64,000 nt of DNA from an uncultured Nitrospiraceae bacterium (GCA_963727805.1 CAVSHF010000003.1:896001-960000); one strand, 5' to 3'. Shown: positions 1,992 to 19,855, counted from the stretch's first letter. A program made the numbers and translations. Notes: generated by a model not told the origin, from the letters alone.

Positions 1992-2183
1992 TAAGTCATA
2001 CGCGTTCCACCAATGCCGTCCTGGGAGGACCATCATGTCTAGTGCTCAGTGGCGCTGCAGATGGAGGCAGGTCCACGTGACTTTCATTTATTTGAATATA
2101 GTGAAGCCCCTGAAATGTTTTGTCTTGTCGCTACTTAAAAAAGATTGCTAAAATTTTACTGAGACTTAATGGGGAGGAGTATA

Positions 2184-2675
2184 GTGGAAACAACGAGGAC
2201 TTCGAACGAATTGCTTCAATTAGTTACTTTTACGCTCAATGCTACCGAATATGCACTGGACATTCACGGCATTCAAGAGGTCAATAGGATGGGACAAATT
2301 ACTCCGTTGCCTGATTCTGCCAAGTGTATCGAGGGGATCATTAATCTCAGAGGTAAAATCGTGCCTATAATCAACCTGAGATCAAAATTTGGTCTTGAAT
2401 CGCAGATCGATGCTAGCCAATCGAGAATAATCGTAGTTGAGGCTGGCAGAACTGTCGGCATGATTGTGGATTCCGTCTCAGAGGTATTGCGCATATCGCC
2501 AGATATGATCGAAGCACCGCCGGATATTGCCGTTGAAGGTACATCACGATACCTGACCGGCATTATAAAATTGCCTGACCGACTCATCAGCATGCTGGAT
2601 ATTGGTGAGTTAATAGGCAGCGACAAGATGCAGCCTTTATCTTTGACGTATAACGAGTCTTCATTGGTACAATAA
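2184..2675 (+). CDS. cheW: Chemotaxis coupling protein CheW
   Basis: LQLVTF, GIINLRGKIVPIINLR, GMIVDSVSEV; GTG at 2184 chosen because GGAGG lies at 2173-2177 (ORF track starts 2169). Confidence 0.92.
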   Translation: METTRTSNELLQLVTFTLNATEYALDIHGIQEVNRMGQITPLPDSAKCIEGIINLRGKIVPIINLRSKFGLESQIDASQSRIIVVEAGRTVGMIVDSVSEVLRISPDMIEAPPDIAVEGTSRYLTGIIKLPDRLISMLDIGELIGSDKMQPLSLTYNESSLVQ

Positions 2676-2856
2676 GTGGAGATTGCAAATCTGAAGACGA
2701 AGAGGAATCGACAAAGCATTCAATCAGTATTGGGTTAAAGGCGGCGGACAGAACTGTCGATCTGAGTAATACATGATACAATAATTATCAAGGAGTGACA
2801 AAACAAAAAATAAAAAAAAATTTACTTGTTTTATATATTTCTAAACTAAAACAAAT

Positions 2857-2874
2857 CCCCCCCCACCCCCCCCC
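2857..2874. repeat. C8-A-C9 homopolymer tract upstream of hybrid kinase
   Basis: Read directly. Confidence 0.85.
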
Positions 2875-2955
2875 TAGCTGCCAAAAGGTAATTTTATTGA
2901 TAAGTACCTTTGTATTAGGTAAAACACGGAGCTCTATCTAGTAGTAAAGTGAACT

Positions 2956-5900
2956 ATGCCCAATAACCCGAAAACCAGTCAGGATTACACCAACGAGGAA
3001 CTTCAGCAGAAATTTGCCGAAGTGACTTCCCTTAATTCTGCATTTCAGGCCATAACAGCAAGTCTAGACATGGCTCACGTTATCGATACCGCCCTTGACC
3101 AGATCCTAGCTACAGCGAAGCCCGATTTTGCAATGGTGTTTCTGAGGAGTGGGAATGAACTCAGCGTTACGGGAAGTCGCCATAGAGATTCCTCCCACGT
3201 TTCTTTACAGATGCCAGTCCACATAGTTGGAAAGTGTCTATGCGGGCTTGCTGTTTCTGAAGGCCGTCCGATCTACTCATTCGACATACATAATGATCTA
3301 CGCTGCGTCTGGAATGAGTGCAAGAATTATGGCATTCAGTCAGCTGCATCACTTCCTCTTCAAATCCGCGGGGACATTATTGGCGTTCTGACTATCGCCT
3401 CTCTAGTGCCTAGAGACTTTTCGCAGCGAAGGGAATTTCTGGAGATGATCGCTGGCCAGATTGCTGTCGGTATTAATAATGCCCAGCTGTATGAACGAAT
3501 CCAAAAACAGGCGGCCATCCAGCAGGAGCTTATTATTGAAAAGGATCGGCTACAGGCGGATCTCCTAACGAATGAGAAACGTTTCAGACAAGTGGCTGAG
3601 AGCACAGGCGTATGGATTTGGGAAGTGGACACTGATGGAATATATCAATATGCCAGTCCTGAAGTTCAAAAAATTCTTGGGTATTCTGTTGGTGAAATTG
3701 TCGGTGAAAAGTATTTCTATGATCTTTATGACCCAGACCTGCGAGAAGAGTTAAAGACGGCAGCATTTGAAGTTTTCGCTCGAAAGGAACCTTTCAGAGG
3801 GTTTTTAAATCCGACCGTCCACAAAGATGGCAGGATAGTCATGCTGGAGACTAGTGGCCTACCAATACTTGATGCGCAAAGCACACTCATAGGGTACCGT
3901 GGCTCGGCTCTTGATATCACAGAACGCAAGATGACTGAAGAGGCTCTTCGACGCACTCAGTTTTCTGTTGATCGGGCCCGCGAGGCCGTATTTCTGGTTA
4001 AATCGGACGCAGGATTGGCCTATGTTAATGATACTGCCTGCCGTTCTCTGGGGTATACAAAAGAAGAACTTCTGACCATGACCGTGTTTGATTTTGACCC
4101 AGAGTTCCCCAGAGATCAATGGGAGGAAATTTGGGTCAGAAATAGCGGAGTTGAATCCTATTTGACTGAAACCGTACATAAAACTAAGGATGGGCGTATC
4201 TTTCCTGTTGAATTAGTTGCCAATCCTCTTGTATTTGGCGGGAAGGAATATCGTGTTGTGTATGCCCGAGATATCACGGAACGCAAGCAGGCAGAAAAAG
4301 CACTTCGGGAGGGTGAGCGAAAGTATCGTGAACTCGTCGAGAATGCAAACAGCATTATTTTGAGGTGGGATCGGGAAGGTCGAATAACTTTCATGAATGA
4401 ATTTGGACTGCGCTTTTTTGGCTTTTCGACTGATGAGGTCATTGGGCATCATGTCATAGGCACTGTTGTCCCCTTGAACGAAACAAGCGGACGTGATATG
4501 CGGTCGCTGATGGATCAGATCTGTGCTAATCCGAAGGAATTTGAGCGTAATATAAATGAAAATGTCCGTAAAAGCGGTGAGAGGGTCTGGATAGACTGGA
4601 CCAACAAGACTGTACTCGATGCTAAAGGGCAGCTCATCGAGATTCTGAGCGTTGGCTCTGATATTACCGAGCGCAGGAAGCTGGAAGAACGCCTTACCAG
4701 ACTCAACAAATGTTTGCTGAGTTTCGGAGCCGATCCCATCGAAAATATCAACAAATTAGTGAGGTTGTGCGGAGAGCAGTTAGCCGCAACATGTGCTCTA
4801 TACAATAGGTTGGATGAAGGGATATTATACTCACTCGGCCAATGGAATACTCCGCCTGGTTTTCTTTTTAAGAATACTCCGGAAGGACACATTTGCTACG
4901 ACGTTATCCGGGACTCTTTATCAGAAGTTAAGGTCATGCGCAATCTCCACGAAACGCTCTATGCGACAACTGATCCGAATATACTTCTATATGGGTTGAA
5001 GACGTACATTGGGAAAGCCGTATCGTTCGGGAAAGAGCCGCACGGTTCACTTTGCGTCGTGTATCAGTCAGATCAGTATTTCACTGATAAAGATAAGGCA
5101 TTCCTGGAAATCGTAGCATCGGCCATCGGGGTTGAGGAAATGCGCAGGGAAGCAGAGAAGTCGCTCATTGAGAGCGAGCAACGCTTTAAAACGCTGGTTG
5201 AAGCATCTTTTGAAGGGATTGCATTGTCAGACTGTGGAGTTTTCGTGGATGTAAGCGATCGACTGGCAAGAATGCTTGGTTATGAACGCAATGAACTCAT
5301 TGGGAAAGCCGTCTTGCAAGTGGTATCTCCTGAGCGTCACGCTATAGTTGAACATTCGATCAAAAATGGTCTTATTGAACCTCTTGAGCATTTTATGCTC
5401 AGGAAAGATGGGACCGTCTTTCCGGCAGAAATACGGCTGAAAATGATACAGGTCGGAGGCCGAGATTTGCGGATGTCTGCAATCCGCGATATTACTGAAC
5501 ACAAGCAGGCGGAAAAGGAAAAAGCTAAGCTTGAATCACAATTACTGCAAGCTCAAAAGATGGAGGCAGTGGGTCAGCTTGCTGGCGGGATAGCCCATGA
5601 CTTTAATAATATTCTTACTGCGATTATAGGCTATGGATCGCTTCTTCAGACGAAATTAAACGATGACACTCTCTTGAGAGACTACATCAAAGAAATACTG
5701 GATGCTGCTAATAGAGCGACCGAAGTCGCCAGAAGCCTTCTTGCCTTCAGCAGAAAGCAAATAATGGATACCAGGCCTATCGACATAAATGACATTGTCC
5801 GACGCATGAATAAATTACTTTCCAGGCTCATCGGTGAAGATATCGAAATAAGTACCGTGTTGGCCAGCAAAAAAATCCTCTGTATGGTTGATACCGGTCA

Positions 5901-6678
5901 GATAGAACAGGTGCTCATGAATCTCACAACTAATGCCAGGGACGCGATGCCCAATGGGGGTAGGCTCATCTTACGTACGGAAGTTGTTGAAGTGGATGAT
6001 TCCCTCATCCAGAATCTTGGCTACGGTAAGCCGGGAAAGTATGCGCTTCTTTCCGTATCGGACACCGGTATTGGGATAAAACAAGAAAATATGGCGAAGA
6101 TCTTCGACCCCTTTTTTACTACCAAGAAGACTGGGAAGGGCACAGGTCTCGGGCTGGCTATGGTATACGGAATTATTAAGCAGCACGGAGGATATATCAA
6201 TGTCTACAGTGAACCCGACAAAGGAGCTATCTTTAGGATATATCTTCCGGCAACTCAGACAAAAGAAGAACTCCTCGTTAATAGATCTATCGAAACGCCA
6301 CTGACAGGCGGCACTGAAACCGTCCTTGTGGCAGAAGATGATGAGAAATTGCGCAAACTCTCAGAAATCGTCCTCACACAAAATGGTTATAAAGTGATTC
6401 TTGCACGAGATGGGGAACAGGCAGTACAAAAGTTTATCGAATATAAGGATAGAATTCAGCTTGTCATCATCGACATGATCATGCCTAAGAAAAGCGGTAA
6501 AGATACGTACGAAGAAATAAAAGCAATCAGACCTGACATAAAGGTACTATTTTCAAGTGGATATACTGGGGATCGGATTGAAAGCTTATTTTTTGGTAAG
6601 GAAGACTTGCATTTCATTAACAAGCCGGTCTCACCCAAGGATCTACTGAGAAAGGTGAGAGAAGTACTGGATAATTGA
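2956..6678 (+). CDS. Hybrid sensor histidine kinase (GAF, multiple PAS, GAF, PAS, HisKA, HATPase, REC)
   Basis: DITERK PAS ends, [13 protein letters not shown]-box, NARDAM N-box, GTGLGL G2-box, LVAEDD/DMIMP/KP receiver. Confidence 0.95.
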   Translation: MPNNPKTSQDYTNEELQQKFAEVTSLNSAFQAITASLDMAHVIDTALDQILATAKPDFAMVFLRSGNELSVTGSRHRDSSHVSLQMPVHIVGKCLCGLAVSEGRPIYSFDIHNDLRCVWNECKNYGIQSAASLPLQIRGDIIGVLTIASLVPRDFSQRREFLEMIAGQIAVGINNAQLYERIQKQAAIQQELIIEKDRLQADLLTNEKRFRQVAESTGVWIWEVDTDGIYQYASPEVQKILGYSVGEIVGEKYFYDLYDPDLREELKTAAFEVFARKEPFRGFLNPTVHKDGRIVMLETSGLPILDAQSTLIGYRGSALDITERKMTEEALRRTQFSVDRAREAVFLVKSDAGLAYVNDTACRSLGYTKEELLTMTVFDFDPEFPRDQWEEIWVRNSGVESYLTETVHKTKDGRIFPVELVANPLVFGGKEYRVVYARDITERKQAEKALREGERKYRELVENANSIILRWDREGRITFMNEFGLRFFGFSTDEVIGHHVIGTVVPLNETSGRDMRSLMDQICANPKEFERNINENVRKSGERVWIDWTNKTVLDAKGQLIEILSVGSDITERRKLEERLTRLNKCLLSFGADPIENINKLVRLCGEQLAATCALYNRLDEGILYSLGQWNTPPGFLFKNTPEGHICYDVIRDSLSEVKVMRNLHETLYATTDPNILLYGLKTYIGKAVSFGKEPHGSLCVVYQSDQYFTDKDKAFLEIVASAIGVEEMRREAEKSLIESEQRFKTLVEASFEGIALSDCGVFVDVSDRLARMLGYERNELIGKAVLQVVSPERHAIVEHSIKNGLIEPLEHFMLRKDGTVFPAEIRLKMIQVGGRDLRMSAIRDITEHKQAEKEKAKLESQLLQAQKMEAVGQLAGGIAHDFNNILTAIIGYGSLLQTKLNDDTLLRDYIKEILDAANRATEVARSLLAFSRKQIMDTRPIDINDIVRRMNKLLSRLIGEDIEISTVLASKKILCMVDTGQIEQVLMNLTTNARDAMPNGGRLILRTEVVEVDDSLIQNLGYGKPGKYALLSVSDTGIGIKQENMAKIFDPFFTTKKTGKGTGLGLAMVYGIIKQHGGYINVYSEPDKGAIFRIYLPATQTKEELLVNRSIETPLTGGTETVLVAEDDEKLRKLSEIVLTQNGYKVILARDGEQAVQKFIEYKDRIQLVIIDMIMPKKSGKDTYEEIKAIRPDIKVLFSSGYTGDRIESLFFGKEDLHFINKPVSPKDLLRKVREVLDN

Positions 6679-6878: not shown

Positions 6879-8171
6879 TTAGAACCTGTATGTAATGCTT
6901 AGCGAGGCAATATGCAGATGAGACTTATACTCGCCGTTGGCAGCTGTCGTTGCATTGAAAGTGCCATCGTTGGGGTTGTCGTCGATGGTATTATTTTTTG
7001 TACGCTTTTGAAGGATTTGATATCCATATCCTGCTGCAAGACTCAGAGATTTCAGCTTTATCTCACTTCCGATCGTAAAGAGATGACCATCTGAATCGGG
7101 GATCGCTGGCTCAAACGTACTCGCCGGAACCGCACCGCGTTGATAAAGATATCCGCCGAGAAGAGCAACAGGCTTTGTCAGTTGGTATTTTAGGCCGATC
7201 ATGCCAGACCACGTATCGCGCCAATTCCGTTCCGAAATAACATCAGAACTGCCGACCACGGGTTGGCCCAACTGCAGGTCGAGTTGCTTGAACAATGACC
7301 ACTGCTCCCATCGTGTTGCAATCTCGAAAGTTAAAGGATAAAGCTGTTTAAAATAAATACCGGCATATGCTTGGGCAGGAAGGTCCAGCTTTGTAGTTGC
7401 GGATGTATTTGGAAACAACGGCCCGAGTATTGGAGCAACGGCGGCAGGGATGCCAAAGGTTACATTCCCATCGAGATCTGTACGAACTCTACTGCGATAG
7501 GAAAGGCCAATATTCACGTCTTTGGTCGGCTCTAATAAAAGACCGGCGTTAAATCCGAGACCGGAGCCAGTAGCATGGAATTTCTGGGTGCCGTCCGGCA
7601 GCGCAAGTCCTGGTACTGAGAAGTTAAGATGACGTTCAAGAGTCGTGTCCACATACATATAAACCAACCCGCCAGCCACTGTGATCCATGGAGCAAGACA
7701 AACCGATGCAACCGGATTAAAGGCAATGCTGGTCAATTTCGAATTTGTGGCGATATAACGACCTTCCCAGTTATCGGGCCATTTTGTCCCCAATCCAAAT
7801 GGACTAAAAACCCCAAATCCTACGCTGAATTTGTCATTCACAGCTTGGGTGACGTAGAAGGTTGACGGAAAGAAGACCTGTGACTCTGTTTTTGTGGTCT
7901 GTCCTGTCAAAGCACTTTTAAACTCTCGTGTGGGGCTGATAAGCGTTGTTTCGGCCTCAACCTGGGTACCCGTCAATTGATTGATGAGTGACGGATTATA
8001 GAAGATGGCAGAGGGATTATCCGAATGCGCTATAGTTGCCGCAGCTTGCGCTGTGCTAGAACTGTCCTGTGTGAAGATGCCGAACCCTGAACTGAACGAG
8101 TCGGTGACACTAATTGCGAGCACCGACACTATGATCAAGATCAGAATTGTTATACGATGTCTTTTTGTCAT
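6879..8171 (-). CDS. fadL: OmpP1/FadL family outer-membrane long-chain fatty acid/hydrophobic compound transporter
   Basis: Signal peptide, DNPSAIFYNP hatch motif, SPFGLGTKW, IPDSD, C-terminal YRF. Confidence 0.9.
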   Translation of the reverse strand: MTKRHRITILILIIVSVLAISVTDSFSSGFGIFTQDSSSTAQAAATIAHSDNPSAIFYNPSLINQLTGTQVEAETTLISPTREFKSALTGQTTKTESQVFFPSTFYVTQAVNDKFSVGFGVFSPFGLGTKWPDNWEGRYIATNSKLTSIAFNPVASVCLAPWITVAGGLVYMYVDTTLERHLNFSVPGLALPDGTQKFHATGSGLGFNAGLLLEPTKDVNIGLSYRSRVRTDLDGNVTFGIPAAVAPILGPLFPNTSATTKLDLPAQAYAGIYFKQLYPLTFEIATRWEQWSLFKQLDLQLGQPVVGSSDVISERNWRDTWSGMIGLKYQLTKPVALLGGYLYQRGAVPASTFEPAIPDSDGHLFTIGSEIKLKSLSLAAGYGYQILQKRTKNNTIDDNPNDGTFNATTAANGEYKSHLHIASLSITYRF

Positions 8172-8266
8172 GGTCCCCCCCTTGGCAGTGCAAATTTATA
8201 CCGCATTGCTAAAAAGCGTGCTGAGGTATTATATTCTATATCGACAAGTTAACGAAATTCTTTACC

Positions 8267-9091
8267 GTGGAGGAGCGGGTGACGTCTAAGATTACTGGAT
8301 ATCTGATGGAAAGTTGTGACGAGGCTATAAGGCTGGACAAAAAAACCGAGGAGACCGTTGTTGAAAAGCAAGCTACTTGGGCTGGCTTGAAGTCCGGAAT
8401 GAGTGTTGCCGATGTGTGCTGTGGCTCCGGGAAGACTACGTCGGTTCTTCACAGGATCGTTTGCCCAACTGGTCAAGCCATTGGAATAGATGCCTCAGAG
8501 CAAAGAATTGCATATGCCCGCAAACACTATGGAAAAGCGCGACTTGATTTTGTCTGCAGGGATATCAAAGGACCTGTAGCGGATATCGGCAAATTTGATC
8601 TTGTGTGGGTAAGATTCGCCCTTGAATATTTCCGCGAGGAAGCCTTTGACTTAGTCAGCAATATCTCGTCCCTTGTCCGGCCAGGGGGCATCTTGTGCCT
8701 AATCGATCTTGATCACAACTGCCTTAATCATTATCAGATGCCGGAGAGGCTGGAGCGGACCGTATTTGATATATCTAGACAACTCACGATGAAGGCGAAC
8801 TTTGATCCGTACTCCGGCAGGAAACTTTATTCACACTTATATCGTCTCGGGTATGCAGATATTGAGGTCGATATCGGTGCTCACCATTTAATTGTAGGGG
8901 AACTCAAAGAGCACGAGGCTTATAACTGGCTGAAAAAGGTGGAAATGATATTCCACAAATTAAACTATAGCTTTCCAGAATATCCAGGTGGACATCAAGA
9001 ATTTCATGATGAGTTTTGGAGTTTCTTCATGGCTCCAGAGAGGTTTACGTATACCCCGATTATTTGTTGCCGGGGTAGACGTCCGGAATAG
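8267..9091 (+). CDS. Class I SAM-dependent methyltransferase
   Basis: VADVCCGSGK motif I, GIDAS, FDLVWVRF, VRPGGILCL. Confidence 0.9.
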   Translation: MEERVTSKITGYLMESCDEAIRLDKKTEETVVEKQATWAGLKSGMSVADVCCGSGKTTSVLHRIVCPTGQAIGIDASEQRIAYARKHYGKARLDFVCRDIKGPVADIGKFDLVWVRFALEYFREEAFDLVSNISSLVRPGGILCLIDLDHNCLNHYQMPERLERTVFDISRQLTMKANFDPYSGRKLYSHLYRLGYADIEVDIGAHHLIVGELKEHEAYNWLKKVEMIFHKLNYSFPEYPGGHQEFHDEFWSFFMAPERFTYTPIICCRGRRPE

Positions 9092-11015
9092 ATATTGGCC
9101 GATCTACGAGACTCGCTTCGTATTCGTTATGAAGATATCGGAGAAAGGCGTCTGTTACTTCGCTATCGTAGTGTTTGTCTCTCTGCTCCTCAAGCAGTTT
9201 GACTGCTTTTTCAAAAGGAATCGGCTCACGGTAATGTCTCTTGGCTGTTACCGCTTCAAAGAAATCTGCTACAGCTATAATACGCGCTCCTAATGGAATC
9301 TCATCACCCTTAAGCCCTCTTGGATATCCAGAACCATCAATCTTTTCGTGATGAGCACCAGCTATTTCAGGGACATCCTTGTAAAGCCCTTCAAAGCCGA
9401 TCCGTCTCAATATTACCATGGTTTTTTCGGCATGAGTTTGAATCTCTTTATACTCCAGGGGAGAAAGAGGCCCCGTTTTCTTCAGGATTACATCGTCGAT
9501 TCCAATCTTGCCGTAATCATGAAGCAGAGATGCTACGCGTATCGTTTCTGTCATGTCGGCTGGGATATTCATTTCTCTACAAATACCCATAGCGAAGACC
9601 GTTACCTTTTCAGAGTGACCGGCCGTGAGAAAGTCCCTGGCGTCGATAGACGCAGCCAGTGTTGCCAGAATATCATGGAACTGTTTTTTTCGTGCCACAT
9701 TTAGGGAATAATTATGCATTGCTATGGCGATTTCAGGACATATCCCCATAAGGAGATTCAGGTCGCTTTGCAATAATGGACGATTGGTCGTCACATTGTC
9801 GACCGCGAGAACTCCTATGCTTTCCTCTTCGTAGATAATTGGACAGCAGCAGAAAGCCTTTGTTCCCATGGCCTTCGCAAAGGCAAGACTACGATCTGAA
9901 AGGGTTTGAGCAATTTCACCGATGTCATTAATCAAAAAAGGCTTCTGATCGTAGAATGCACGGACAAAAACGCCCGTGGAGGATTTATTAAGTTGAAAGC
10001 TCGCATCCTTAAGCGAATTAATCTGTTCATCCTGATACCCAAATCCTGCGCTGAATATCAGCTGAGTTTTGTCATCATTAGCAAGCATGATCATGCCTCG
10101 CTCGTAATCAAGACGATTCGAAAGTATGTGTACGACCTTATCCAAAATATCCGTAGTTGACTGCTGCTTGCTCAGTGCTAATCCTATTTCGTTAACAACT
10201 AAAGCATTATTATAATTCACTTTAATTTGTTCCATTAGCTGGTCCTGTGAACCTCTGATATGATCGAGTGCCGTTAATAGTTCGTCGTGCTCCAAACTCA
10301 TTACATTCATATTCAAAAGCAGGATGATACCAAAGGCAATCGGCACTAGCGTCATTAGCGTGAACGCGGGATAGGAAAGACTGCTCAAGAAGCAAGCAGT
10401 CGCGAGGAGAAGCGTTGCTGCATTCCGATATTTCTTCCTGCTATCGGACTGCACCTCTGTCCATGATATTTCGTACTTGCAAACAGCATCCCCCTTGAAC
10501 ATACATTGCGGATGTTCTATTTTTGGCATCTTATGTCCGAAAGCCATAGTTATTGCCTCGAAGTAACCAAGGCGATTTTCACACTGGAAAGGCCGTTCCT
10601 GGTATTCAGCTTTTGGAGTAACCGTTATTTCGACAATATTGGGTGCAATCCGCTTTGCCTGACACGTAGCGCTTCTTACAAACTGCGGCATCCATTTGCC
10701 GACGAGCTCATAAGCCCTTGCGGGACCGACAAGGCCAAGGATATAAGGCCGGAGAACTCCTACTGCATCTGGAGAATTTCCATAACGACCAGCCTCTCTT
10801 GCGATGTTGTCATTACCCGAAAGCTTTACGAGTCGGTCATAAAATCGATCTATCTGCTCCTGTGTAAACCAGTGCCCTTCATCATTGACCTGGTAAGGTT
10901 CCATCCCCGCATAGTGAAGCAATTCTCCGATGTCTATGTAGGTGTATTTATTCTTTATGAATTTGACATAAGTATTTATGATCCGACTATTGTAGATGCC
11001 CAGATTATCTGTCAT
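9060..11015 (-). CDS. HD-GYP cyclic-dinucleotide phosphodiesterase with N-terminal V4R/H-NOX-like domain, TM hairpin and GAF
   Basis: GHSEKV, HDYGK, HHEKIDGSGYP; CENRLG...EHPQCMFKGDAVC V4R-type Cys pattern; GAF CPIIYEEESIGVLAVDN. Confidence 0.9.
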   Translation of the reverse strand: MTDNLGIYNSRIINTYVKFIKNKYTYIDIGELLHYAGMEPYQVNDEGHWFTQEQIDRFYDRLVKLSGNDNIAREAGRYGNSPDAVGVLRPYILGLVGPARAYELVGKWMPQFVRSATCQAKRIAPNIVEITVTPKAEYQERPFQCENRLGYFEAITMAFGHKMPKIEHPQCMFKGDAVCKYEISWTEVQSDSRKKYRNAATLLLATACFLSSLSYPAFTLMTLVPIAFGIILLLNMNVMSLEHDELLTALDHIRGSQDQLMEQIKVNYNNALVVNEIGLALSKQQSTTDILDKVVHILSNRLDYERGMIMLANDDKTQLIFSAGFGYQDEQINSLKDASFQLNKSSTGVFVRAFYDQKPFLINDIGEIAQTLSDRSLAFAKAMGTKAFCCCPIIYEEESIGVLAVDNVTTNRPLLQSDLNLLMGICPEIAIAMHNYSLNVARKKQFHDILATLAASIDARDFLTAGHSEKVTVFAMGICREMNIPADMTETIRVASLLHDYGKIGIDDVILKKTGPLSPLEYKEIQTHAEKTMVILRRIGFEGLYKDVPEIAGAHHEKIDGSGYPRGLKGDEIPLGARIIAVADFFEAVTAKRHYREPIPFEKAVKLLEEQRDKHYDSEVTDAFLRYLHNEYEASLVDRPISIPDVYPGNK

Positions 11016-11036
11016 TAAATGGCCTCAATAGTACCA

Positions 11037-13097
11037 TTATTCATCATTGTGATGCCTCTGGCCTAATATACTCTCCATATACTTGATAAATGGTTCTGTC
11101 CCCTCCGCAGTAGTTATAGCCCATAAGTTATATATCTTTTCAAAAGGTATCGATTTTTGCATGGCATAATTGGCAGGGAAAATCATCACAGGCACATCGT
11201 TTTCAACATAAAAATGAGCGAGTTCAGAAAGCGCTGAATATAAGAGCTTGACGTCAAGACTTTCGAGCATAACAAACACTTTAATGCAGTTGGTCACATT
11301 GGACATGTTCAAGCCTGTATCGGTCACAGTGACAGCTATCAGTGCTTGTAGGCATCCGTCGACTCGTATGGAAAAGAGATGCCGTTCTCGCTTAAACCCC
11401 ACCTCACGGTATTGATCATTCAAGCCCTCAGCCTCAAGTGTATCGGGTGTGATATCAAGTGCATGCACCATAAGTCCACAATATTTATGCTCATAGAAGC
11501 GCTGGAATTCTATGATGTCAGAGGCTTGAGCTGTAGCCAACTCCCCGACCGTCTTGATCGGAAATCCTGGTTTCAACATATGGAAAAAAGCAAAAGGATC
11601 GATAGAGCAACATCTGGGATTGTTCAATAACTCCTTGAAACCGCCGAAGATTCTGTGCGGGAATCTGTTCTCAGGACGGTAATAAGATATAACGTAATGC
11701 ATGTGACTGGAGTTAAGTAAATAGAAGTTGTTCACATATTGACTTATCTGATTCAGGACGGCCAATCCGGCTTTTAGGCCATTCGACTTAGCCGCATGGT
11801 GGTGGAATAGCCATGTATTCTCATAAGCGCGAAGCATGGCTATGTGTCCGAGTATCTCGCCTCGATCCTGATACGTGAAATGCCGTGCGATGCTAGGACC
11901 GTCAATATATAGTTTTTTATACGTCTGTTTAAAAGATTCTTTGTGTTCGTGCATACTTGCGTATTTCTCGGGATAAATAAAGCCCACTTCGAAAAAAAAT
12001 TGCCATAGTGAATCTAGATCCACCTTGTTGCATGTAAACGCCCTTTTGTCTTGCATCTGTTGTAGGAGCGAGGAAAGGCAAACCTGGTCCTGCATGTCAA
12101 TATCCAAAAAGGCTATACCCGTCTTTACAGAGGCTTTTTCTTCATTGTCACTGATCAAAGATCTATGGACAACCTGAACCCGACAGCGTAGCGTCAGGTT
12201 GTTGGCGAGTTCGATTTTTAATTCTGGTATCACAAGACCAACCATGAGAACCGAACTGTCGTAATACTCCTTGACACTGAATCCAGACCCCGATATTCCA
12301 TCGACACAAAGATTTATCATTTTCCCGGTAAGCGGATGAGTAAAATATATACTTGGTGCAGGCTGCGGGAGGTATCGGGGGCTTCTACTAGTCTTCGACC
12401 GAAAGCGAGGGTGGTTAGAGGCTAATGGTCTCAATATAAGGCGTCTCTGAAGAGTTTCCGCTGTTTGCCGCACTATCATGCAGTCGCCGGAATAAAGTAT
12501 ATCCTTATCATTCTTAAGTATGGTATAGATTTTGTCCTTATCGTTAATCCAGAGAAAAGATTGAGGAGGCGCCGGGCTGACTTCAACACAGAATGTTTCG
12601 GCGCTGAAATCGATGAGTGTCCCCTTAAACAACCCGCTGCTCTGTAATAGCTCAACTGTGACGCCAGTACAAGGATGCCTCTTCACATTGCGCGAACTGA
12701 TTTCGACCCCTTTTTCCGGCAAAATAAAACTTGCCCCCTCGTTAGATATATTTTGAGGTTCGGCAGGGATTGAAATAAACTTCAAACCGTCTGTCACCAG
12801 AAGTTCGACAAAATAGTAGGATCTCCTATCGCGTTGAACATTGCCGGGGGATACCCAAACGCAGCTGACTATATCATCAATGCACGGCAGAGGTTGCGCT
12901 TGGACAGTTATAACGGTATCGAATCTGATATGTCTGAATATTGCAAGAATCATGCCGTCTTGGAAGTGGATATAATTGAGGATATTGGTGAGTTGTTTTT
13001 TGAGGATATCTTTCCCCTCGAGCCTATGGCCGCATTTAAAGCGTCCATCGATTGCATCAAACTTGTCCAAGGCCCCTCCAGACACAAATCTTAACAA
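11037..13097 (-). CDS. PilZ-domain-containing protein (two PilZ-like units plus a C-terminal possible acyltransferase/GNAT-like domain)
   Basis: RNVKRH...DFSAETF and RSPRY...GISGSGF PilZ-like motifs; the C-terminal fold call is inference. Confidence 0.7.
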   Translation of the reverse strand: MLRFVSGGALDKFDAIDGRFKCGHRLEGKDILKKQLTNILNYIHFQDGMILAIFRHIRFDTVITVQAQPLPCIDDIVSCVWVSPGNVQRDRRSYYFVELLVTDGLKFISIPAEPQNISNEGASFILPEKGVEISSRNVKRHPCTGVTVELLQSSGLFKGTLIDFSAETFCVEVSPAPPQSFLWINDKDKIYTILKNDKDILYSGDCMIVRQTAETLQRRLILRPLASNHPRFRSKTSRSPRYLPQPAPSIYFTHPLTGKMINLCVDGISGSGFSVKEYYDSSVLMVGLVIPELKIELANNLTLRCRVQVVHRSLISDNEEKASVKTGIAFLDIDMQDQVCLSSLLQQMQDKRAFTCNKVDLDSLWQFFFEVGFIYPEKYASMHEHKESFKQTYKKLYIDGPSIARHFTYQDRGEILGHIAMLRAYENTWLFHHHAAKSNGLKAGLAVLNQISQYVNNFYLLNSSHMHYVISYYRPENRFPHRIFGGFKELLNNPRCCSIDPFAFFHMLKPGFPIKTVGELATAQASDIIEFQRFYEHKYCGLMVHALDITPDTLEAEGLNDQYREVGFKRERHLFSIRVDGCLQALIAVTVTDTGLNMSNVTNCIKVFVMLESLDVKLLYSALSELAHFYVENDVPVMIFPANYAMQKSIPFEKIYNLWAITTAEGTEPFIKYMESILGQRHHNDE

Positions 13098-14296: not shown

Positions 14297-14524
14297 ATGG
14301 CAATAAAGAAAAAGATATCGACTGCAAAGGAAGCAAAGGAGACCAAGCCCAAAAAGCTTGTGAAAAAGACATCACCGAAGAAGCAGAAAGATCTCAAAGC
14401 GGGTGGCCATTACCAATGTGGCGTCTGCGGCCTTGCCGTAACCGTCAACGAGGTGTGCGGGTGCGTCGATTTTTGTGACATAATCTGTTGCGGCGAACAG
14501 ATGAAGTCTTTGAAGCACAAATAA
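14297..14524 (+). CDS. Small Lys-rich/Cys-rich protein (desulforedoxin-like CxxC...CCG motif)
   Basis: GGAGG RBS; YQCGVCG...CGCVDFCDIICCGEQM. Confidence 0.75.
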   Translation: MAIKKKISTAKEAKETKPKKLVKKTSPKKQKDLKAGGHYQCGVCGLAVTVNEVCGCVDFCDIICCGEQMKSLKHK

Positions 14525-14538
14525 AAGGAGGAGGGAAG

Positions 14539-14910
14539 ATGAAACAATCGACAGTTACTCTTTTGGCAGTTTTTGTTGCTGTGGCTATCGCAGTGGTTGC
14601 CTTCGCGGCGTCAAATGGCGTAATGGACGTTAAGCCAGGAGATGAGATTTATGTTTGTGCATGCGGTGAGACCTGTCCCTGCGATACTATGTCGAGGAAT
14701 CCCGGCAAATGCAGCTGTGGGAAGGATATGGTAAAAGTAACCGTCACGAAAGTCGAAAATGGTATGGTCTATGTTGACGGTGGGAAAAAAGTCTACAAGC
14801 AGAAGGGAAAATATACATGCGCATGCGGTGATCAGTGCAAATGTGACACGATCAGCCAAAACCCTGGCAAGTGCAGCTGTGGGAAAGATATGGTCCCTGC
14901 AAAGCCATAG
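14539..14910 (+). CDS. Secreted Cys-rich protein with two heavy-metal-binding-like repeats
   Basis: AGGAGG RBS, signal peptide, two YxCACGxxCxCDTxSxNPGKCSCGKDMV repeats. Confidence 0.8.
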   Translation: MKQSTVTLLAVFVAVAIAVVAFAASNGVMDVKPGDEIYVCACGETCPCDTMSRNPGKCSCGKDMVKVTVTKVENGMVYVDGGKKVYKQKGKYTCACGDQCKCDTISQNPGKCSCGKDMVPAKP

Positions 14911-16961: not shown

Positions 16962-17264
16962 ATGCAGGAACGTGGTGGAAGAAGGAAGTACGACAAGCAG
17001 TTCAAGGAAGAAGCAGTCAAGCTTGTAACAGAGGGTGGCAGGACAGTAGCTGATGTAGCCCGGAGTCTTGGGATACATGAGAATCTGTTACACACATGGA
17101 AACGACAGCTCAAGGACGATCCAGCTGGCAGTTTTCCTGGCAAGGGGCATCAGAAGTCCCAGGATGAAGAGCTACGCAGACTGCAGAAAGAGAACGCCAG
17201 TCTGAAAGAGGATAAAGAAATCCTAAAAAAAGCGTTGGCCATCTTCTCAAAACACCCCAAATGA
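16962..17264 (+). CDS. IS3 transposase OrfA (HTH)
   Basis: RRKYDKQFKEEAVKL...VARSLGI; A7G slippery site at 17225-17232. Confidence 0.93.
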   Translation: MQERGGRRKYDKQFKEEAVKLVTEGGRTVADVARSLGIHENLLHTWKRQLKDDPAGSFPGKGHQKSQDEELRRLQKENASLKEDKEILKKALAIFSKHPK

Positions 17265-18124
17265 AATACTGGTTTATGGACCAGCATAGCTCCTCGCATG
17301 GGGTGCAGAAGATGTGCCGGGAAATAAGAGCATCAAGGAGCGGATATTACAGGTGGAAGAAAGAGCCTCAGAGCAAAAGGCAGAAGGAAAACGAGAAGAT
17401 ACTTTTGGGAATAAGAGAATCGCATAAGAACAGTGGCAAGGCCTATGGGAGTCCACGGATAACCGATGATCTGCGTGACAACGGGGCAAAATGTGGAGAA
17501 AACCGAGTGGCGCGCATTATGAGAGCTAATGGGATAGTCGGCAAAGCAAAGAAGAAATTCAAGGCGACGACGAACTCCAAGCATAATCTGCCGGTTGCGG
17601 AGAATCTTCTAGAGCAAAACTTTATGGCAGAGAGACCCAATACAAAATGGGTCGCGGATATAACTTATGTTTGGACAATGGAAGGCTGGTTATATCTGGC
17701 GGTGGTATTGGATCTTTATTCCCGTCAGGTTGTGGGATGGGCCATGAGTGATCGTCTAAAGTCAGGCTTTGTTATAGAAGCTTTGAGGCAGGCGGTAGGT
17801 CGTCGCGGTCCAGATCCAGGCTGTATATTTCATTCAGACAGAGGCGTTCAGTACGCTTGTGAGGATTTCAGAGCCGAATTAAAGGCATATGGTTTTATCC
17901 AGAGCATGAGCAGGAAGGGCAATTGTTATGACAATGCTGTTGCCGAGAGCTTCTTCCATACGCTAAAGACAGAGCATGTATATGATTACAGATATGAAAC
18001 ACGGGCAGAGGCACGGCAGAGTATTTTTGTATGGATCGAAATGGTCTATAATCGGAGGAGGAAGCATTCAGCACTTGGGAACCTTTCGCCGGTATCCTTT
18101 GAGCTGATGGCTTTAGCAGCCTAA
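17261..18124 (+). CDS. IS3 transposase OrfB (DDE integrase core)
   Basis: WVADITY, HSDRGVQY, DNAVAESFFHTLK; -1 frame relative to OrfA, ATGA overlap. Confidence 0.95.
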   Translation: MKYWFMDQHSSSHGVQKMCREIRASRSGYYRWKKEPQSKRQKENEKILLGIRESHKNSGKAYGSPRITDDLRDNGAKCGENRVARIMRANGIVGKAKKKFKATTNSKHNLPVAENLLEQNFMAERPNTKWVADITYVWTMEGWLYLAVVLDLYSRQVVGWAMSDRLKSGFVIEALRQAVGRRGPDPGCIFHSDRGVQYACEDFRAELKAYGFIQSMSRKGNCYDNAVAESFFHTLKTEHVYDYRYETRAEARQSIFVWIEMVYNRRRKHSALGNLSPVSFELMALAA

Positions 18125-18375
18125 CTTAACTGGGTGTCCGAAATATCGGGGGAAGACCAACATCCATTCTATTGACGAGCAACACAGAAAACTTGTGGCA
18201 CTTGTGAATAATCTTAACGATGCTATGAGTTCTGGAAAAGGGCAGCAGATCATGGGCAAAATCCTTGATGATTTGGTTGCTTATACCAAGACACATTTTG
18301 CAACTGAAGAGCGGCTTATGACAACCCATACGTACCCCGGATACCTACTCCATAAGAAAGAGCATGACAATTTAA

Positions 18376-19855
18376 CCCAGAATCGTCATTAGCCAACAAT
18401 TTCTAATGGCCGCCATTAGGAATTGGTCTGGATAAGTTACTGAAAAAGCGATAAGATATTGCAATGCCTTTGGCACAAGCGGAAGCGAAAATGGTGTAAG
18501 GAATCTATTCATGGCACGAGAGCTTGAGCTGAGCTTTAGCGACAAAGAAATAACCCCATGGGGCGGCATGGCGTTGATGAATCGGATGCTTGGGAAAATG
18601 GACTTTCGTGGAGCATTAAAGCGGGCTGCACTGCCGATGCAAGGTTCCAATCGTGGGTATGCACCTGAGCAACTGATAGAACAGTTTCTAATAAGTGTGT
18701 GGTGCGGAGCCAACCGATTTGAGCATCTTGAAGTCACTCGGCACGATGAAGCAATACGGAAGATATTTGATTACAGACGTATGGCCGGGCATAAGTCAGT
18801 TCAAAGATATTTCAGGAAGTTTGGGCAAGCAACAAACCAGAGAGTGTTTCAGGAGCTCTATCAGTGGTTTTTCCAACGACTGCATTTTGATAATTTCACC
18901 TTGGATTTGGACTCAACGGTTATGAGTCGGTACGGGCAACAGGAAGGAGCGCGGCGTGGCTATAATCCTCAGAAGCCAGGGAGAAACTCCCATCATCCAC
19001 TGCTGGCATTTGTTGCGGATTGTCGAATGGTGGCCAACTGCTGGCTGAGATCTGGCGATGCCCATACGGCAAATAACTTTGAGGGATTTCTGCAAGACAC
19101 TCTGGAACACCTTGCCGGCAAGAAGGTTGGTCTGTTGCGTGCAGATAGCGGATTTTGCCAGAAGACTATACTGGAGTATCTTGAGGAACCGCAACATACA
19201 ATCCCCTATATTATTGCCACACGACTACATGCGCCTGTACAGCGCATGCTTGCGGCGCATCGGCAGTGGGTTGAGGTTGAAGACGGCATAGAAGTGGCTT
19301 CGGTTCTCTATACAGGCAATGGCTGGGGTAAAGAGCGCAGGATGGTCATGGTGCGACAACGGATTTCCAGAAGGCCGAAGGCAACTGGCAAAGTGCTGAG
19401 ATTGTTTGCAGAGGAAGTGGAGATCAGGGACTATCGCTATGGCTGTTTTGTTACGAGTCTAGAGCTTCCGGCACACCTTGTGTGGAAAATCTATCGGATG
19501 CGGGCAGATGCTGAGAACCGGATCAAGGAACTGAAGTATGACTTTGGTGCTGACAGTTTCAATATGCAAAGTTTCAGCGCCACTGAAACAGCAATGAACT
19601 GCGTCATGCTTGCCTATAATCTGATGAGTCTGTTTCGGCAGGTAGTCTTGTGCAGTAAGGTTCAACCAACTTTAAAGACGATGCGATACAAGGTATTTGC
19701 TGCTGGCGGCTACTTAGTCAAAGATGGTAATAGACGTATTCTTAAGCTTTGCCTGGCGATGCGGCGACGGCAATGGTTTGAAGGGCTCTGGGGCAAATCA
19801 AAGGATTTTGATCTGCCTGTTTCATTCACTTCACATCTCTAATGACAATTCTGGG
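18376..19855 (+). mobile_element. IS1380-family insertion sequence (1480 bp)
   Basis: 17-bp TIRs CCCAGAATCGTCATTAG / CTAATGACAATTCTGGG (16/17); AT-rich flanks TTTAA and TTAAA. Confidence 0.92.
18511..19842 (+). CDS. IS1380-family DDE transposase
   Basis: TPWGG, TLDLDST, LLRADSGF, YRMRADAENRIKELK. Confidence 0.93.
   Translation: MARELELSFSDKEITPWGGMALMNRMLGKMDFRGALKRAALPMQGSNRGYAPEQLIEQFLISVWCGANRFEHLEVTRHDEAIRKIFDYRRMAGHKSVQRYFRKFGQATNQRVFQELYQWFFQRLHFDNFTLDLDSTVMSRYGQQEGARRGYNPQKPGRNSHHPLLAFVADCRMVANCWLRSGDAHTANNFEGFLQDTLEHLAGKKVGLLRADSGFCQKTILEYLEEPQHTIPYIIATRLHAPVQRMLAAHRQWVEVEDGIEVASVLYTGNGWGKERRMVMVRQRISRRPKATGKVLRLFAEEVEIRDYRYGCFVTSLELPAHLVWKIYRMRADAENRIKELKYDFGADSFNMQSFSATETAMNCVMLAYNLMSLFRQVVLCSKVQPTLKTMRYKVFAAGGYLVKDGNRRILKLCLAMRRRQWFEGLWGKSKDFDLPVSFTSHL

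Follow-up and report, generated by a model that had tools for sequence, protein, structure and literature searches.

In Xanthomonas, the RpfF/RpfC/RpfG system places a lipid-signal synthase beside a membrane sensor and employs an HD-GYP protein (RpfG) as output. A comparable pairing of a synthase gene with that of a membrane sensor exists in Ralstonia, where the methyltransferase PhcB makes a methyl-ester signal and PhcS is the sensor (PMC8578825). Fusions of second-messenger domains with GNAT-fold enzymes are known as well, namely PixB (MXAN_2604) of Myxococcus xanthus, in which PilZ domains precede a GNAT domain and cyclic diguanylate (c-di-GMP), bound despite degenerate second motifs, is proposed to boost the transferase (PMC8316039), and the Nas343/Nas354-PilZ fusions and the cAMP-activated NasP, which make N-acyl amino acids proposed to be cellular messengers (PMC4897644). 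In addition, H-NOX proteins sensing nitric oxide (NO) or O2 combine a zinc site and a glycine hinge with coupling to kinases and c-di-GMP enzymes (PMC7108781), and the double-GNAT enzyme HisAT N-acylates free histidine and accepts myristoyl- and palmitoyl-CoA, with usually one half being active in double-GNATs (PMC12219266). In this study, a four-gene locus is described that joins parts resembling all of these systems. It lies at positions 6879 to 13097 of a 64,000-nucleotide stretch (the window in the following) from the genome of an uncultured Nitrospiraceae bacterium (GCA_963727805.1, CAVSHF010000003.1:896001-960000) and encodes the following proteins, henceforth called the cassette:

6879..8171, minus strand: FadL/OmpP1/TodX outer-membrane channel, open reading frame (ORF) of 430 aa; accessory gene belonging to a cassette-enriched subfamily
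8267..9091, plus strand: class I S-adenosylmethionine (SAM)-dependent methyltransferase, ORF of 274 aa; cassette-specific family
9060..11015, minus strand: sensor phosphodiesterase with H-NOX-fold domain, hydrophobic segment, GAF and HD-GYP domains, ORF of 651 aa; predicted to be membrane-anchored
11037..13097, minus strand: PilZN-like/PilZ/PilZ plus tandem-GNAT protein, 686 aa from TTG 13097; predicted c-di-GMP-regulated acyltransferase

Individual parts of the cassette have precedents (PixB, NAS-PilZ/NasP, PhcB/PhcS and RpfF/RpfG), whereas none was found for the cassette itself. Neither the cassette nor the tandem-GNAT family nor the heme-less receptor described below was found in the literature searched, the coverage of which excludes most subscription papers, and a term search in the accessible text of a PilZ survey (10.1101/2020.02.11.943704) gave no mention of GNAT. 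In PixB, the motif arginines R121 and R331 are 210 residues apart compared to about 100 in the cassette protein (as judged from published motif positions), the GNAT domain is detectable with Pfam while the tandem GNAT of the cassette has no Pfam match, and the accessible text does not describe an associated sensor/methyltransferase/FadL cassette (PMC8316039). In the Nas fusions, one FeeM-type domain is followed by a lone PilZ domain, and they are not part of an operon (PMC4897644), whereas in the cassette the barrels precede the tandem GNAT and a putative cognate sensor as well as tailoring enzymes accompany it. Compared to the Phc and Rpf systems, both the synthase fold and the sensor domain are different, sensor and phosphodiesterase are combined in one protein and the candidate synthase carries PilZ domains.

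All four ORFs and their strands, the gap of 21 bp between the PilZ-GNAT and HD-GYP genes, the overlap of 32 bp between the methyltransferase and HD-GYP genes and the 95 bp separating fadL from the methyltransferase gene were found exactly as reported in the first-pass annotation of the window. Only the starts may have to be shifted, as TTG 13070 is more likely for the PilZ-GNAT protein (677 aa, preceded by Shine-Dalgarno-like GGAGG and giving the same length as its 97%-identical relative P0001) and GTG 8279, also with a Shine-Dalgarno-like GGAGG, for the methyltransferase. No second copy of the PilZ protein, methyltransferase or sensor N-terminus exists in the host genome. The best protein matches are from Thermodesulfovibrionales, which makes the host probably a member of the Nitrospirota belonging to this group.

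The fixed core of the cassette consists of the GNAT protein, the methyltransferase and the sensor domain, with HD-GYP being one of several outputs. In a scan of species genomes, at least 541 relatives were obtained among 601 candidate stretches, and the best 80, favouring close relatives, were kept. By tblastn, the methyltransferase gene adjoins the GNAT gene in 67 of these 80 loci, the sensor domain in 53 and fadL in 21, while 12 of the 13 loci missing the methyltransferase are truncated by contig ends. According to the record titles, the loci belong to Nitrospirota, Thermodesulfobacteriota, Planctomycetota (Brocadiales) and Campylobacterota, and the hosts are mostly anaerobes. Gene order is mostly as in the window, and linkage is kept also where genes are rearranged (loci L006, L018, L039, L052 and L077). 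Among the 27 loci without adjacent sensor, 22 are from genomes encoding it elsewhere, mostly in frames of 950 to 1050 aa; the proteins of this size that were checked with Pfam are hybrid kinases. Besides B12-radical-SAM genes, present in 7 of the 80 loci, no other family recurs across lineages, and htpX and rpsA are found as flanking genes just in a single group of Desulfobacterales.

Presence and absence of the three core genes coincide likewise. Among the 301 host-phylum genomes, 12 were matched by the GNAT profile, 13 by that of the methyltransferase (E up to 1e-30) and 12 strongly plus 2 weakly by that of the sensor domain; GNAT, methyltransferase and strong sensor matches fall in the identical 12 genomes, and a genome of the same genus (G208) does not possess any cassette gene. 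In a second phylum (that of genome G308; 251 genomes), close GNAT matches were found in 23 genomes, distant ones in 5 and a fragment in 1. Here, a close sensor domain accompanies the close GNAT in 21 of the 23 genomes, and some GNAT match is present in 24 of the 25 genomes with close sensor domain (21 close, 2 distant, 1 fragment; none in the remaining one). The close methyltransferase is present in 19 genomes, 17 times together with a close GNAT and twice at contig ends. A further 23 genomes show weak sensor-domain matches only, 3 of them beside a distant GNAT. Over 67 loci, the pairwise identities of the three core proteins correlate (Spearman 0.53–0.70 within the main group), a co-divergence that could be explained by shared descent alone. 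As the linkage is conserved across phyla, it is not due to chance. If the two enzymes are taken as the synthase, these patterns of linkage and co-occurrence are those of a synthase with its receptor.

A divergent sister subfamily (loci L223–L227) shows the same association at great evolutionary distance. In all five loci, a 950-aa multi-PilZ tandem GNAT, a methyltransferase and a kinase bearing the sensor domain are encoded side by side, although mean identity to the main group is only 22% for the GNAT, 30% for the methyltransferase and 21% for the sensor, compared to 48–59% within the main group. One or two B12-radical-SAM genes are found in 5/5 and an NAD-epimerase/short-chain dehydrogenase/reductase (SDR) gene in 2/5 of these loci, both being small-molecule tailoring enzymes. 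The radical-SAM proteins do not reach any NCBIfam cut-off, the best score being PhpK-like with 322 of 600 bits.

For the 686-aa protein, structure modelling (pLDDT 89, pTM 0.85) was combined with conservation in a 115-sequence alignment comprising the window protein and 114 of 120 listed matches, resulting in two regions:

12051..13013, minus strand: three predicted beta-barrels, YcgR/MrkH/Alg44-like, residues 29–349; R136xxxR140 with DxSxxF and R238xxR241 with D267xSxxG272
11112..12047, minus strand: predicted tandem GNAT, residues 351–662; FxYPxK 373–378, YExxWxxHHHA 425–435, YxRxxNxFP 472–480 and GxNxS 595–599

The modelled barrels span residues 29–134, 136–226 and 235–349. They match the PilZ barrels of MrkH, Alg44 and YcgR with Z-scores of 11–12.7 and root-mean-square deviations (rmsd) of 1.7–2.5 (for example, YcgR 5y6f with Z 12.3 and Alg44 4rt0 with Z 11.1, rmsd 2.5 and 106 aligned residues), while the Pfam score for PilZ stays under the cut-off (E 6e-4). 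Three barrels are predicted instead of two, and neither of the two PilZ-like motif pairs noticed earlier is fully canonical. In the divergent subfamily, the GNAT-adjacent barrel carries canonical PilZ motifs in 4/4 full-length proteins scanned. Binding of c-di-GMP to the PilZ barrels is likely.

The first-pass annotation had made its proposal depend on an acyltransferase fold in the enzyme-like C-terminus, and a tandem GNAT is indeed predicted, with GNAT folds at residues 351–508 and 519–662. Over residues 350–669, double-GNAT structures are matched with Foldseek E of 3.5e-9 to 1e-6 and VIA Z of 10–13. The best match is HisAT (9emd; Z 13.1, rmsd 4.3, 263 aligned, 8% identity), followed by Ta0821, glucosamine acetyltransferases (GlmA), VipF and NMT. 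HisAT/NAT16 and other double-GNAT enzymes show the best structural likeness to the C-terminal half (Z 13, 258–266 aligned), but with 7–8% identity and rmsd of 4.3–6.0 their substrate is not transferable to the cassette enzyme. Conservation is centred on the first GNAT half, where H418 and W429 are invariant and H432–H434, R474 and N477 near-invariant; H433, R474, N477, FxYPxK and the GxNxS loop of the second half are kept even in the distant subfamily. At the CoA-loop position, the first half reads S-xxx-K/R-A-G, with G444 in 115/115 sequences. N477 (111/115, also in the divergent group) presumably represents the motif-B Asn, as assumed from GNAT topology. Pfam gave no match at cut-off for 69 members of the GNAT region, the weak best hits being DUF2828 and PanZ-GNAT in 2–3 members, NCBIfam gave none for the 686-aa protein, and a search of PDB sequences with the full family profile gave 0 matches at E up to 10. 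More specifically, the FeeM/NAS and LuxI families matched neither in Pfam/NCBIfam among the 69 members nor among PDB sequences; FeeM, LuxI and ornithine-lipid synthases are not among the top fold matches listed, which does not exclude them. The tandem-GNAT family comprises 401 clusters at 50% identity (E up to 1e-30). In the ESM Atlas, it corresponds to unnamed clusters, where Acetyltransf_1 is no more than a lead (0.85) for 18% of a single cluster. In Syntrophobacteraceae, some copies (L014:8384-12001, L040:8252-12013, L047:9098-12037, P0122, P0136 and P0077) possess an N-terminal extension of 300–550 aa that by eye resembles NERD plus a Ser/Thr kinase.

The sensor protein is composed of four parts:

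10458..10994, minus strand: heme-less H-NOX-fold (V4R-like) domain, residues 8–186; predicted Zn site C145/H168/C171/C179, hinge G76/G150, invariant D45-x2-HWF-x-Q52
10290..10421, minus strand: hydrophobic stretch, residues about 199–242; putative transmembrane hairpin, with one segment (213–242) over threshold
9714..10163, minus strand: GAF domain, residues 285–434; Pfam E 3e-14
9156..9650, minus strand: HD-GYP domain, residues 456–620; HD_5 E 8e-39, catalytic motifs present

The model of the N-terminal domain (residues 1–190, 52 aligned sequences, pLDDT 91) is predicted to adopt the H-NOX fold, with H-NOX of Shewanella oneidensis (4u99) as best match (Z 17.1, rmsd 2.5, 170 aligned; Foldseek TM-score about 0.7) and VirS (Z 13.8) and DmpR (Z 9.0) following. 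The first-pass annotation had given this N-terminus a V4R-type Cys pattern; Pfam V4R itself remains under cut-off at E 0.056. C145, H168 and C171 are conserved in 52/52 and C179 in 51/52 sequences, aligning with the zinc ligands C139, H161, C164 and C172 of S. oneidensis H-NOX (PMC7108781); such a Cys3-His/Gln zinc site is a feature of one subset of H-NOX proteins. G150 aligns with the H-NOX hinge glycine, G76 is invariant as well, and D45, H48, W49, F50, Q52, E140, Q144 and R148 are invariant on the pocket side. YxSxR, the heme-propionate motif of heme H-NOX proteins, is absent at sensor residues 131–136. Moreover, no conserved His was found at residues 96–115 in the 52 aligned sequences, whereas the proximal His (His103, helix F) is absolutely conserved across 598 H-NOX sequences (PMC7108781). 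Lacking both features, the domain represents an H-NOX scaffold but not a heme H-NOX, and as modelled the N-terminus is a heme-less pocket and not an NO sensor; heme-NO sensing, which had been considered, was rejected on account of the missing ligand His. Further differences from H-NOX proteins are the fused GAF domain and predicted membrane anchor and the tie to biosynthetic genes. With regard to the latter anchor, a hydrophobic stretch is clearly present, but the hydropathy scan reports one long segment, so that the previously annotated hairpin is only putative. The annotated HD-GYP motif set and the GAF domain are corroborated by Pfam and by the motifs GHS (H467), HD (499–500), HHE-x5-GYP (555–565) and a last Asp at 584. 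Four strict motif patterns are matched by 44, 46, 40 and 32 of 48 relatives. Across the family, the sensor outputs are HD-GYP, HD-GYP-PilZ, PAS-HD-GYP and the histidine kinase (HK) and receiver (REC) combinations PAS-HK-REC and HK-REC-HK. Geobacterales have HD-GYP sensors with a C-terminal PilZ domain, sensor or GNAT genes are duplicated within one locus or genome in L066, L070, L236/L237 and L254, and the latter also encodes a 494-aa sensor-GAF protein without output domain (L254:8692-10176). Distant heme-less sensor domains are found on histidine kinases at L256 and L257, both from genomes without GNAT.

The methyltransferase belongs to Methyltransf_25 (Pfam E 2e-15), with invariant DxxxGxG, WxRFxLEY and LDLDxN motifs. 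Its hits in the PDB are dominated by enzymes acting on small molecules (3mgg, E 1e-17; juvenile-hormone-acid methyltransferase, E 2.5e-14; phosphoethanolamine methyltransferase), and scores for CheR and PCMT are weak or partial. The GNAT and methyltransferase profiles are unrelated to each other. In a quick-mode, weakly supported methyltransferase tree the phyla intermix, which does not demonstrate transfer.

FadL is a dedicated but dispensable partner of the core. The protein (Toluene_X, Pfam E 9e-61; 206 bits versus a cut-off of 29.7; N-terminal hydrophobic segment 4–30) scores far below the cut-off for the enterobacterial FadL equivalog and falls in a close subfamily (>570 bits, next score 396) with members in 6 cassette genomes and 2 more in which the adjacent gene is split or cut, i.e., in 8/12 cassette genomes versus 2/289 others. 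This profile is partly circular, as 5 of the 8 genomes are contained in it; genome G112 is not, and its copy is unlinked. A second fadL of the host (G000:C5:993114-994379, 63% identical) is located among transposase-like genes without cassette partners. At L263:275-10011 (G184:C40), a fadL of the close subfamily lies by a FabF-like ketosynthase, an unrelated methyltransferase, a 7TM-GAF kinase and receiver kinases, which looks like another lipid-signal locus. A more distant fadL at L266:7010-15000 (G114:C3) is followed by a 656-aa PilZ-HMG-CoA-reductase fusion, a 7TM-GAF-HK-REC-HK kinase and a receiver protein, matching the logic of the cassette (PilZ-gated enzyme, channel and membrane sensor) with a different enzyme.

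Since the sensor input remains tied to two particular enzymes even as its output varies, and since small-molecule tailoring enzymes and a channel for hydrophobic solutes are optional partners, a synthase-receptor pair for a lipophilic ligand would be the simplest account. In the proposed mechanism, c-di-GMP would bind the PilZ barrels and gate the predicted tandem-GNAT acyltransferase, the first half of which would acylate an amine to give, as we favour, an N-acylated amino acid or amine. The methyltransferase would then tailor this product, with a carboxyl ester as favoured outcome, and B12-radical-SAM enzymes might do so in some lineages. FadL may carry the signal across the outer membrane, with uptake as favoured direction; in Sinorhizobium, FadL mediates uptake of long-chain acyl homoserine lactones (PMC9938287). 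Finally, the heme-less H-NOX-fold domain would bind the signal and adjust the activity of the HD-GYP phosphodiesterase, which would in turn act back on c-di-GMP, in a host with 11 GGDEF-motif and 9 HD-GYP-motif ORFs. Negative feedback would result if the signal activates the phosphodiesterase and c-di-GMP the synthase. The closed c-di-GMP loop postulated in the first-pass annotation may apply to the window with its HD-GYP output, but as this is just one of several outputs it would be realized in part of the family only; with a kinase output, as in many lineages, it would be left open or work indirectly. Overall, we see the chances as evenly balanced that the cassette makes and senses its own lipophilic, acylated and methylated signal via a c-di-GMP-gated enzyme pair and a heme-less domain.

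Several findings weigh against such a self-produced signal. In barrel 2, RxxxR is found in 109 and 112 of 115 sequences but is accompanied by DxSxxF, and barrel 3 has the non-consensus combination of RxxR (105 and 115/115) with DxSxxG (107, 111 and 114/115). Structural identity to any GNAT is just 7–13% and the canonical Q/RxxGxG CoA loop is unrecognisable in the first half. Neighbours of the 80 loci do not regularly include acyl-carrier-protein or fatty-acid genes. The suggested co-occurrence of the genes holds far beyond background, but FadL is absent from 4/12 cassette genomes, from 18/35 well-flanked loci with adjacent sensor (present in 17/35), from all 14 well-flanked loci without adjacent sensor and from all five loci of the divergent subfamily, while the methyltransferase is missing from the contiguous loci L228, L229, L230, L236 and L262. 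Distant sensor-domain relatives also occur in genomes without GNAT. Besides, the co-occurrence counts derive from kin that are not independent and from incomplete genomes, some of which fed the profiles.

Among the alternative explanations, a chance neighbourhood of the four genes is scarcely credible and is refuted for the three-gene core by the adjacency of GNAT and methyltransferase, by the matching genome profiles in two phyla and by a linkage surviving rearrangement and deep divergence, even considering that FadL-like genes are common (168/301 host-phylum genomes) and that in L267, L269 and L271 the GNAT gene follows directly behind ftsA-ftsZ-like genes with the methyltransferase on other contigs, which likewise speaks against the proposed cassette. 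The foremost of the alternatives, though unlikely, is that the two enzymes act on proteins (for instance, on the sensor itself, forming an adaptation circuit), with the sensor reading an outside hydrophobic cue admitted by FadL. The GNAT fold also serves protein acylases, and such tandem enzymes (NMT, VipF and Eis-like) rank high in the fold search; the substrate of PixB is unknown (PMC8316039), direct protein contact fits the co-divergence of the three genes equally well, and the extension seen by eye on some Syntrophobacter copies is kinase-like. This reading conflicts with the predominance of small-molecule enzymes over CheR and PCMT among the methyltransferase matches and with the SDR and B12-radical-SAM neighbours, which suit a small molecule.

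A foreign hydrophobic compound might also enter by FadL, be sensed by the H-NOX-fold domain and be quenched by acylation and methylation at high c-di-GMP. The gene logic fits this sense-and-inactivate scheme equally, foreign small molecules are, according to the structure titles, the ligands of VirS and DmpR/PoxR, which are related in fold, and presence is patchy, as in genus-mate G208. Nevertheless, it appears distinctly unlikely, as it would be unusual for three PilZ barrels to govern a detoxifying enzyme, B12-radical-SAM partners are biosynthetic as a rule and neither efflux nor catabolic genes recur beside the cassette loci. Alternatively, the N-terminal domain could be a zinc-thiolate redox sensor, with the enzymes producing, under control of c-di-GMP, an amino-lipid of structural role or an envelope modification and no diffusible signal. 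The predicted Zn ligands matching those of S. oneidensis H-NOX, the oxidation sensing at the Zn site of heme-free Vibrio cholerae H-NOX (PMC7108781) and the mostly anaerobic hosts are consistent with this idea, which we regard as very improbable, since it explains neither why the domain is so strictly paired, and co-diverges, with two particular enzymes nor the invariant pocket-side residues and the dedicated FadL.

Outside of the cassette, CheW and a GAF-PAS hybrid histidine kinase (window 2169-6678) converge on fadL and are not kept beside the cassette elsewhere. On the other side, a 140-aa exported-looking protein with two Cys-rich repeats and a weak metallothionein match is encoded at 14488-14910, with a short Cys-rich frame ahead of it near 14298-14500. 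Positions 16962-19842 hold a transposase pair, which we take to be IS3-like, and a transposase-like ORF of 443 aa, the latter recurring immediately upstream of the window. Rfam detected no riboswitch at gathering score in the window and four loci, and a promoter scan was uninformative (15 sites versus 12.5 expected). Three metatranscriptomes share only 5–6% of words, with short 90–99%-alike contigs across all four genes, which is not evidence of expression; a fourth RNA run spans the stretch, and the listed indels are all outside of the four ORFs.

By this analysis, two unannotated families are defined, a tandem GNAT for which Pfam has no model and a sensor domain of heme-less H-NOX fold that is employed on both phosphodiesterases and kinases, and the record titles include the cultured hosts Thermodesulfovibrio sp. 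N1 and Geobacter sp. AOG1. The signals exchanged between cells of sulfate reducers, Geobacterales, anammox bacteria and Nitrospirota are, to our knowledge, ill defined. As the cassette unites candidates for synthase, tailoring enzyme, channel and receptor in a compact set that can be expressed, the question of a signal is directly addressable by liquid chromatography-mass spectrometry and phosphodiesterase experiments. Tentatively, and with somewhat less than even confidence, the cassette may represent a cross-phylum autoinducer system of mostly anaerobes (Thermodesulfovibrionia, Desulfobacterales, Geobacterales and Brocadiales) employing a new class of acylated, methylated lipid signals that a c-di-GMP-gated tandem-GNAT synthase, a methyltransferase and, optionally, B12-radical-SAM enzymes would produce, and in which the H-NOX domain would have traded heme for the signal and, wired here to a phosphodiesterase, would let messenger and signal regulate each other.

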